A stretch of DNA of 8,595 nucleotides. It comes from a virus (Duplodnaviria; Heunggongvirae; Uroviricota; Caudoviricetes). Below, piece by piece: positions 3,748 to 8,595 of this stretch; the first letter of the stretch is position 1, and each line of letters starts with the position of its first letter. Below the pieces are notes generated by a model, which was not told the DNA's origin, ran no database searches, and saw nothing but the letters and a program-made list of their open reading frames with translations. The translations under genes were made by a program, and so were the position numbers. Where the stretch lies: the IMG/VR virus record IMGVR_UViG_2541047680_000002; one strand, 5' to 3'.

Positions 3748-7428
<3,681 letters not shown>

Positions 7429-7454
<26 letters not shown>

Positions 7455-7974
7455 TCAGCAACCCCGGTATCAGTTCATCCAGCGCGGCTGCTTTGTTCAT
7501 GGCTTTGATGATATCCCGTTTCAGGAAATCAATATGCCGGTTATCCAGCTCAGGAAAACGTCGCTGCACCGACAGAGGAATACCGTCGAGAATACTGGAT
7601 ATTTCCCTTGCTATACGCGACAGCACGAAAGTACAGAATGCGGTTTCCACCACTTCAGCCGATTCTTTGGCATTTTTCAGTTCCTGCGCCGTCGCCTGAG
7701 CACGGGTCAGGCGATGGCGCTCAAATTCAAGTGTTCCGGGGTGAAGATCTGCCTCGCTGGCCAGCCGCAGTTCTTCAACCTCCCGGCGCAGCTTTTCGTT
7801 CTCAATTTCAGCATCCCTTTCGGCATACCATTTTATGACGGCGGCAGAATCATAAAGCACCTCATTACCCTTGCCACCGCCTCGCAGAACGGGCATTCCC
7901 TGCTCCTGCCAGTTCTGAATGGTACGGATACTCGCACCGAAAATATCAGCCAGCTGCTTTTTGTTGACTTCCAT
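7429..7974 (-). CDS. Nu1: Terminase small subunit Nu1 (181 aa; cosB-binding, N-terminal helix-turn-helix)
   Basis: Track ORF 7429..7974 (MEVNKKQLADIFGASIRTIQNWQEQGMPVLRGGGKGNEVLYDSAAVIKWYAERDAEIENEKLRREVEEL...LLSEYIEQSG) is a homologue of lambda gpNu1, with scattered substitutions relative to my recollection of lambda. ATG at 7974..7972 sits 189 nt downstream of the inferred cosN left end (190 in lambda). Stop is TGA at 7429..7431. Confidence 0.95.
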
Positions 7975-7998: not shown

Positions 7999-8110
7999 AG
8001 AAAGGAAACGACAGAGGCCAAAAAGCCCGTTTTCAGCATCTGTCGTTTCCTTTCTTTTCAGGGGGTGTTTTAAATAAAAACATTAAGTTACGGCGAAGAA
8101 GAACGGAAAC
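7999..8110 (-). promoter_or_regulatory. cosB terminase-binding region: R1 (7999..8014), R2 (8040..8055, inverted relative to R1), IHF-site region I1 (about 8056..8094), R3 (8095..8110)
   Basis: R1 and R2 are a perfect 16-bp inverted repeat read from the sequence (plus strand agaaaggaaacgacag at 7999..8014 and ctgtcgtttcctttct at 8040..8055). The minus strand of 8095..8110 reads GTTTCCGTTCTTCTTC. These match the lambda Nu1-binding R elements as I recall them, in lambda order and spacing between cosN and Nu1. Confidence 0.8.
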
Positions 8111-8151
8111 GCCTTAAACCGGAAAATTTTCATAAATAGCGAAAACCCGCG

Positions 8152-8163
8152 CGCCTTCCGCCC
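8152..8163 (-). other. cosN (terminase nicking site); inferred 12-nt cohesive end on the phage sense strand is 5'-GGGCGGAAGGCG-3'
   Basis: Flanks align without gaps to lambda as I recall it: upstream ...TACG, downstream CGCGGGTTTTCGCTATTTATGAAAATTTTCCGGTTTAAGGCGTTTCCGTTCTTCTTCG. The 12-mer between them matches lambda GGGCGGCGACCT at 7 of 12 positions; the left half GGGCGG is identical and the right half differs. Nick positions are inferred by homology, not observed. Confidence 0.7.
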
Positions 8164-8164
8164 C

Positions 8165-8200
8165 GTAGCCTGCCGGATCGCCGGAAAGGACCCGCAAAGG
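8165..8200 (-). other. Phage right-end segment immediately upstream of cosN, homologous to the lambda right terminus (expected location of cosQ)
   Basis: The minus strand reads ...GTGATAATTATTCTCACCTTTGCGGGTCCTTTCCGGCGATCCGGCAGGCTACG, which resembles the last ~50 nt of the lambda genome as I recall it (...GATAATCATTATCACTTTACGGGTCCTTTCCGGTGATCCGACAGGTTACG). The exact cosQ boundaries are not determined. Confidence 0.45.
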
Positions 8201-8263
8201 TGAGAATAATTATCACTTGCATTAATATCCAGCTTCTTCCACCATCGCACCGGACGGGCGACT

Positions 8264-8440
8264 ATGAGGGACAAAACCGCGCACCATAAACGCGGTAAAA
8301 ACCCGGTGTGCATCGTTTTTGATTATTTACGCACACTCGCGCAGAAGGAATTCCCCGTCGGGCTACGGTCATGGTTAATGCGGAAATACGGCGACGATGC
8401 AGCGCATGATGTGTCAGGCTTGAATACCTTTATCCGTTAA
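8264..8440 (+). CDS. Hypothetical small ORF (58 aa, MRDKTAHHKRGKNPVCIVFDYLRTLAQKEFPVGLRSWLMRKYGDDAARDVSGLNTFIR) in the phage right-end region, opposite in orientation to the late genes
   Basis: ATG at 8264 to TAA at 8438..8440, translated by hand; it is below the length cutoff of the supplied track. No convincing Shine-Dalgarno (only ggacggg upstream) and no recognisable promoter. An imperfect hairpin (gggata 8443..8448 with tatccc 8459..8464) follows the stop. No similarity to anything I recognise. Confidence 0.2.
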   Translation: MRDKTAHHKRGKNPVCIVFDYLRTLAQKEFPVGLRSWLMRKYGDDAAHDVSGLNTFIR

Positions 8441-8595
8441 AAGGGATATCAGTTAAGTTATCCCGTGCAGGGTATAAGCCATTATCAAAGCCACTCAGTA
8501 CTGAGAGATCCCCTCATAATTTCCCCAAAGCGTAACCATGTGTGAATAAATTTTGAGCTAGTAGGGTTGCAGCCACGAGTAAGTCTTCCCTTGTT

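Follow-up and report, generated by a model that had tools for sequence, protein, structure and literature searches.

The 8,595-nucleotide stretch of viral DNA analysed here (IMG/VR record IMGVR_UViG_2541047680_000002, hereafter the window) very probably contains a working lambda-type cos site in which the right half of cosN is a natural allele, AAGGCG. The variant is an ordinary recurring natural allele, neither a defect nor a new specificity. For this reading we rely on the sequence itself, on the recurrence of the allele, on its mosaic contexts and on the absence of covariation in the terminase, all from our own analysis, and on the tolerance of the right half and the anchoring by cosB as described in the literature.

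The cos region of the window and its alignment to lambda

The window is a lambda-type left arm in reverse orientation. Its genes all lie on the minus strand, in the series FII (200-553), FI, E, D, C/Nu3, B, W, A and Nu1; all nine (Nu1, A, W, B, C, D, E, FI and FII) are full length and stop-free, with 92-100% identity to the lambda proteins. The terminase genes, the elements of the cos site and the neighbouring features are located as follows.

5529..7454, minus strand: A, large terminase gpA, 641 aa, 634/641 residues as in lambda (98.9%), intact
7429..7974, minus strand: Nu1, small terminase, 181 aa, 169/181 residues as in lambda (93%), intact
7999..8014, minus strand: cosB R1, CTGTCGTTTCCTTTCT, as in lambda
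8040..8055, minus strand: cosB R2, AGAAAGGAAACGACAG, as in lambda and inverted relative to R3 and R1; the boundaries are our own reading of the repeat
8099..8114, minus strand: cosB R3, AGGCGTTTCCGTTCTT, as in lambda bp 50-65
8150..8151, minus strand: flanking CG beside the bottom-strand nick, bp 13-14, as in lambda
8152..8163, minus strand: the 12-bp cosN segment between the predicted nicks, predicted 5' overhang GGGCGGAAGGCG, with bp 1 at 8163 and bp 12 at 8152
8152..8157, minus strand: cosN right half, bp 7-12, AAGGCG (lambda CGACCT, 5/6 positions different)
8158..8163, minus strand: cosN left half, bp 1-6, GGGCGG, as in lambda
8164..8165, minus strand: flanking CG beside the top-strand nick, at the end of ...TACG, as in lambda
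8187..8193, minus strand: the heptamer GGGTCCT, the putative cosQ equivalent; its sequence and its distance from cosN are those of lambda 48473-48479
8264-8440, plus strand: a 58-aa ORF between the IS insertion and cos, directed away from the late operon
8501-8595, the last 95 bases of the window: terminal part of an IS10-type element (CTGAGAGATCCCCTCATAATTTCCCC...)

On the minus strand, window 8140-8200 reads ...GCGGGTCCTTTCCGGCGATCCGGCAGGCTACG / GGGCGGAAGGCG / CGCGGGTTTTCGCTATTTATG..., where the slashes mark the predicted nicks. When the window is aligned to the joined right-end/left-end junction of lambda NC_001416, the cosN segment occupies the exact position of lambda GGGCGGCGACCT, to which it is identical at 7/12 positions. 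The changes are C>A at bp 7, G>A at bp 8, A>G at bp 9, C>G at bp 10 and T>G at bp 12, and C11 is unchanged. The alignment bears out the original prediction of a cosN with a right half divergent at five of six positions; the coordinates given there (8141-8168) are correct, with the overhang itself at 8152-8163, and the lambda cosN sequence given there agrees with NC_001416.

The alignment is free of gaps from lambda 48470 to bp 136, that is, through cosQ, cosN, R3, I1 and R2, and the sole indel is the loss of one base (lambda bp 137) from the R2-R1 spacer. The R elements are identical to those of lambda, as had been expected, but the expected gap-free alignment through R3, R2 and R1 is broken by this one base, and the cos flanks carry ten substitutions (bp -32, -17, -10, -5, 71, 73, 97, 102, 125 and 134). 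All ten of these are transitions, in comparison with three transversions among the five changes of the block. The R3-I1-R2-R1 series of cosB lies at the lambda distance from cosN, with the cosN-to-R3 spacing unchanged; the extent of R3 (lambda bp 50-65) was taken from PMC9026076. The CG pairs that flank the nicks are highly conserved, as is cosQ (PMC4669245). By the left half of cosN and its CG pairs, the layout of cosB, the spacing of cosQ and the neighbouring Nu1 and A genes, the predicted site is a lambda-type cos, and the alignment and the protein identities support the earlier proposal that a natural variant of cosN is combined here with cosQ, cosB and Nu1/A of the lambda type.

The flanks diverge from lambda at 53/757 positions (7%). 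At this rate, the probability of at least five mismatches in six positions is about 1e-5 per 6-bp interval and about 0.007 after allowing for 752 such intervals, so the cluster of five mismatches in the right half exceeds chance. The GC content of the overhang is preserved (10/12; predicted Tm 46.3 vs 47.8 C).

Other readings of the block itself were considered and discarded. A sequencing artefact is ruled out by the identical block in more than 150 independent records. An origin by inversion finds too weak a match, as the reverse complement of lambda bp 7-12 (AGGTCG) agrees with AAGGCG at 4/6 positions and the direct sequence at 1/6. We also rejected the retention of C11 as meaningful, because other natural alleles vary at bp 11 (GAGCGG, CAGCGT and, as reported in PMC4669245, Gifsy-1) and the change C11G is reported to be free of phenotype (PMC4669245).

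Recurrence and mosaic contexts of the AAGGCG allele

The exact variant junction is found in two of 50,697 phage records, PhiR46_1 (PV340565) and YDC107_1 (CP025712), which have the same cosN block, 99% identity over 501 bp around cos and the same late-gene order. PhiR46_1 was deposited as an Escherichia phage, complete genome, with ECOR13 as an indicator-type host; a literature search returned no paper on PhiR46_1 as a plaque-former, on the PhiR series or on the PhiR accession numbers. Both records follow prophage or assembly coordinates and do not start from cos, and neither cos nor the cohesive end is annotated in them. A left-end-anchored search found no phage record that starts with the variant 12-mer, and in the match coordinates of a search that covered 51 contigs no IMG/VR contig terminates exactly at the variant cos.

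Those 51 IMG/VR contigs carry the allele, as do 24 PLSDB plasmids from E. coli, E. albertii, E. fergusonii and Shigella sonnei, most of them of 42-51 kb and the remainder ranging from 34 to 92 kb. In complete E. coli genomes, the allele occurs at 85 places in 80 of 5,426 genomes and the canonical junction at 8,360 places, which gives the allele a share of about 1% of the lambda-type cosN sites and makes it the second most frequent on lambda-type flanks in this species. Plasmids account for 15 of the 85 variant places vs 20 of the 8,360 canonical ones in the same genome set, a strong extrachromosomal enrichment. Among representatives with one genome per species, the allele is present in Escherichia sp. 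E1V33. An unbiased IMG/VR sample of 120 cos sites, in which the flanks were fixed and the 12-mer left free, contained 115 canonical sites, three with the AAGGCG allele, one with CGACCG and one with a change in the left half. The 12-mer first singled out in the window is thus real, but its suggested novelty does not hold, since the recurrence among lambda-family elements that had been named as speaking against it is largely what we found.

Some records returned by these searches are observations of a different kind. IMGVR_UViG_3300045988_113976 (56,122 bp) carries two variant cos junctions (L139 and L143) on opposite strands of their loci, which could represent two elements or an assembly artefact. 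Exact lambda cos junctions were also seen in assemblies of Oceanobacillus, Neobacillus, Shewanella and Leeuwenhoekiella and of Chromatiales and Pseudomonadales MAGs (L179, L181, L183, L189, L190 and L194), several of them at contig ends or followed by non-lambda sequence, and in the PLSDB “plasmids” H195, H217 and H218, among which there is a 48,499-bp Paenibacillus sonchi record. These lambda junctions in unrelated organisms look like contamination by lambda control DNA.

The AAGGCG block is invariant and its surroundings are not. On the right-arm side, the 13-nt spacer next to it comes in at least 12 versions, and the right-arm sequences are many and unrelated. On the other side, the block adjoins at least two types of cosB and small terminase: the lambda-type R3 and an N15/Monarch-like R3 (GGTGGTGG or GGTGGTGGTTTTGTTGTT), the latter at four loci (L065, L127, L155 and L162) with a different small terminase of 180 aa that starts with MKLHLMNKKNMAKSCRVSATAFDKWGV. 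The presence of the allele beside this R3 and this other small terminase indicates that it is not bound to the packaging specificity of lambda. We saw a third downstream sequence once, at L149, which resembles a deleted lambda-type locus. The canonical cosN is also found on the same flanks as the variant, and such mosaic contexts are expected if recombination takes place in the conserved sequences that flank the block. At a single locus (L249, IMG/VR 3300045988_073544), the same flanks enclose GGGCGGCAGGCG, which differs from the allele of the window by one change (A7C) and is the sole near-intermediate that we saw linking the two common alleles.

The elements most closely related to the window take two forms: N15-like telomere phage-plasmids and integrated lambdoid prophages. 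The first form is exemplified by PhiR46_1 (L174), with annotated telL/telR, a protelomerase confirmed by Pfam, ParA/ParB and a large RepA, and by the plasmid pEC21Z151-46K (L282, NZ_CP101200.1), with a protelomerase, CyRepA1 and SopA; unlike N15, both have near-lambda head and tail genes and a lambda-type terminase. On such lambda-headed N15-like telomere phage-plasmids, AAGGCG is the predominant allele. The second form is exemplified by a prophage of strain VTB96815v, in which the integrase adjoins dusA. The source of the window could be either a phage-plasmid or an integrated prophage.

The window copy bears an IS10-like insertion 337 bp from cosN on the right-arm side, of a type that E. coli genome annotations list as an IS4-like ISVsa5 family transposase. 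PhiR46_1, YDC107_1 and the 46-kb plasmids have no such insertion at 8500/8501, and the closest relatives align to the window only up to 8500. Between this insertion and cos, the 58-aa ORF has its counterpart in PhiR46_1 at 19569-19745 on the minus strand, labelled as a hypothetical protein. Pfam gave no match for the small ORFs that adjoin cos, 8264-8440 (plus strand) and 8083-8313 (minus strand), and Rfam gave no RNA family in the window.

The insertion bears on one of the alternatives, raised with the original prediction, in which cosN would be inactive because of the five changes and the element a packaging-defective, decaying prophage that persists only passively. The frameshifted J gene of the relative pEC21Z151-46K could be read in the same sense as the IS10-like element of the window copy. 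We nevertheless consider this alternative very unlikely in view of how widely the allele recurs and of the intact packaging genes: the identical block is shared by the more than 150 independent records mentioned above, on many flanks and with at least two terminase types, a mosaic pattern that would be hard to reconcile with a dead site, and the packaging and head genes of the window are all whole. The allele is also present in the deposited phage genome PhiR46_1, in whose terms the insertion site is intergenic, about 22 bp beyond a 450-nt hypothetical gene. That the window copy itself is packaged and viable is what we infer from its sequence, and the IS10-like element so near to cosN counts against certainty on this point.

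The terminase and the predicted cutting of the variant site

For the terminase, we compared 26 variant and 33 canonical loci, each with a full 641-aa gpA. The gpA of the window differs from that of lambda at seven residues (N9D, S21A, S268A, V377L, I459V, T532M and G621S), none of which tracks the cosN allele, and no residue of gpA or Nu1 separates the 26 variant from the 33 canonical loci. The gpA proteins of a variant locus (L135) and a canonical one (L072) are 100% identical, the gpA proteins linked to the variant are 0-5 residues away from the nearest one linked to the canonical allele, and four Nu1 sequences are common to both alleles. The comparison of gpA with lambda that had been proposed at the outset therefore yielded no allele-specific residue.

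These results leave little room for a co-evolved specificity, in which use of the allele would depend on a corresponding change in gpA or Nu1, and the allele would define a new nicking specificity beyond the reach of the lambda terminase. We found no support for it, and it is conceivable only through the seven differences between the gpA proteins of the window and lambda. With no discriminating residue, with identical gpA beside both alleles, with shared Nu1 proteins, and with a lambda TerL that shows no cosN specificity towards N15 (PMC4669245), such a specificity is extremely unlikely. A change in the large terminase subunit would not be required for the use of the variant.

The published work on lambda offers an explanation for this indifference. 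The cosN site is functionally asymmetric (Feiss et al. 2015, PMC4669245): many mutations of bp 7-12 have a minimal effect, and G2C lowers the yield about 10-fold when the symmetric C11G has no effect (PMC4669245). The asymmetry is attributed to the nearness of the right half to cosB, where the TerS bound to R3 positions TerL, and differences in the right half are described as “common” among lambda-like phages (PMC4669245). In the same study, the yields of lambda TerL were equal on the cosN of lambda and that of N15, with 103-132 pfu per cell reported for the two; the tolerance data in print come from single changes and from the 2-bp difference of N15, not from five changes combined (PMC4669245). 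The sensitivity of nicking to base changes in cosN, which had made a change of the right half seem remarkable, finds no support for this half, as bp 7-12 are described as tolerant and commonly variable (PMC4669245).

Our explanation, in which the window has a working lambda-type cos site with a natural right-half allele, extends this picture to the variant. Nu1 on R3, R2 and R1, together with IHF on I1, would anchor gpA at a fixed distance, and with gpA so anchored the bottom-strand nick between bp 12 and 13 would be largely independent of the sequence of bp 7-12. For the top-strand nick, the determinants would be the flanking CG and the conserved left half, GGGCGG. The product would be a 12-nt 5' overhang, GGGCGGAAGGCG, and its complement, and a change in the terminase would be unnecessary. 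Recombination in the conserved sequences on both sides may then have spread the block among lambdoid prophages and N15-like phage-plasmids.

The exact nick positions in this explanation are predicted from the unchanged cosN-to-R3 spacing, and they could be different if nicking at the variant were shifted or imprecise, with the bottom nick 2 nt to either side and an overhang of 10 or 14 nt, or mixed ends, as the outcome. The sequence gives some occasion for this, as the run GGCGCGCGGG repeats CG at bp 11-12, 13-14 and 15-16, and local contacts between TerL and cosN possibly aid precise positioning (PMC9026076). However, the spacing between cosN and R3 is held to set the nick position, with shifts of more than 1-2 bp leading to misnicking (PMC4669245), and it is unchanged in the window. 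In N15 (...GTCCG/CGCAG), too, the bottom nick lies between two CG pairs, yet its 12-nt end is determined (NC_001901). We therefore regard shifted nicking as quite unlikely and retain the 12-nt overhang.

If the variant is cut in this way, a lambda-type helper should cut it as well, which answers part of the interest that was first attached to the allele. The joining of ends is another matter. Hybrid chromosomes might arise by recombination or from mixed concatemers cut between a lambda-type and a variant cos, and their two ends, one of lambda and one of the variant, would be mismatched at 5/12 positions. Cohesive ends with a 2-bp mismatch, the sole mismatch size tested, are reported to bring a 4-fold loss of yield, and we infer that a chromosome with five mismatches would probably not circularise. 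One could go further and propose that the five-base block forms a separate compatibility group of cohesive ends, whose carriers are partly isolated from canonical lambdoid phages, and that the allele is perhaps kept for this reason and not by drift. This proposal is rather unlikely; if true, it would notably concern the lambda-headed N15-like telomere phage-plasmids.

The allele leaves the understanding of the terminase unchanged. It adds a further natural allele to the established picture in which cosB positions the terminase and so leaves the cosB-proximal half of cosN free to vary, and it is a handy natural substrate with which to study the limits of right-half tolerance and circularisation with mismatched ends. 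On the practical side, tools that locate cos sites or termini by an exact match to the lambda 12-mer will overlook about 1% of the lambda-type cos sites of E. coli, and the majority of such sites on N15-like phage-plasmids.

Comparison with known right-half variants

Besides AAGGCG, we found other natural right halves, namely AGACCT in PhiR70_1 and CGACCG, GAGCGG, CGAACC, CAGACG, CAGGCG, CTGACG, CAGCGT and CAGACT. With five changes, AAGGCG is the most divergent right-half allele found here. In the searchable literature, the 12-mer and its reverse complement retrieved no phage paper, only unrelated papers on plants and Streptomyces.

The window resembles lambda (NC_001416) in cosQ, in bp 1-6, C11 and the flanking CGs of cosN, in the spacing to R3, in R3, R2 and R1, and in the gene order through FII. 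It differs from lambda at bp 7, 8, 9, 10 and 12, in the 1-bp R2-R1 deletion and in a few transitions in I1 and the spacers, and its right-arm sequence is unrelated to that of lambda beyond about 60 bp from cosN.

Changes confined to bp 7-12 have been described before: N15 and phiD326 differ from lambda at bp 9 and 12, and Gifsy-1 differs at bp 8, 9 and 11 (PMC4669245). For N15, we confirmed the end as GGGCGGCGTCCG, with the right half CGTCCG, and the 12-nt end is annotated in NC_001901. Like the window, N15 and phiD326 combine a variant right half with the retained left half, flanking CGs and cosQ, and they share with it C11 and G12; N15-like telomere phage-plasmids are also among the nearest relatives of the window. 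In contrast to the five changes of the window, N15 has only two from lambda (bp 9 and 12), its cosB is simple, with one R3 of another sequence, and its TerL shares only about 65% identity with that of lambda (PMC4669245), where the cosB and the terminase of the window are of the lambda type.

The likeness to Gifsy-1 and to mEp213/LLS lies in the confinement of the variation to bp 7-12, as reported for Gifsy-1 in PMC4669245 and for mEp213/LLS in PMC12315714, in which the sequence is GGGCGGCGCGCT with the right half CGCGCT. Judging from the sequences as reported, both differ from the window in having other bases, fewer changes and different head and terminase modules. With its changes restricted to the same six positions, the AAGGCG allele would belong to the class of right-half variants represented by N15, phiD326, Gifsy-1 and mEp213.
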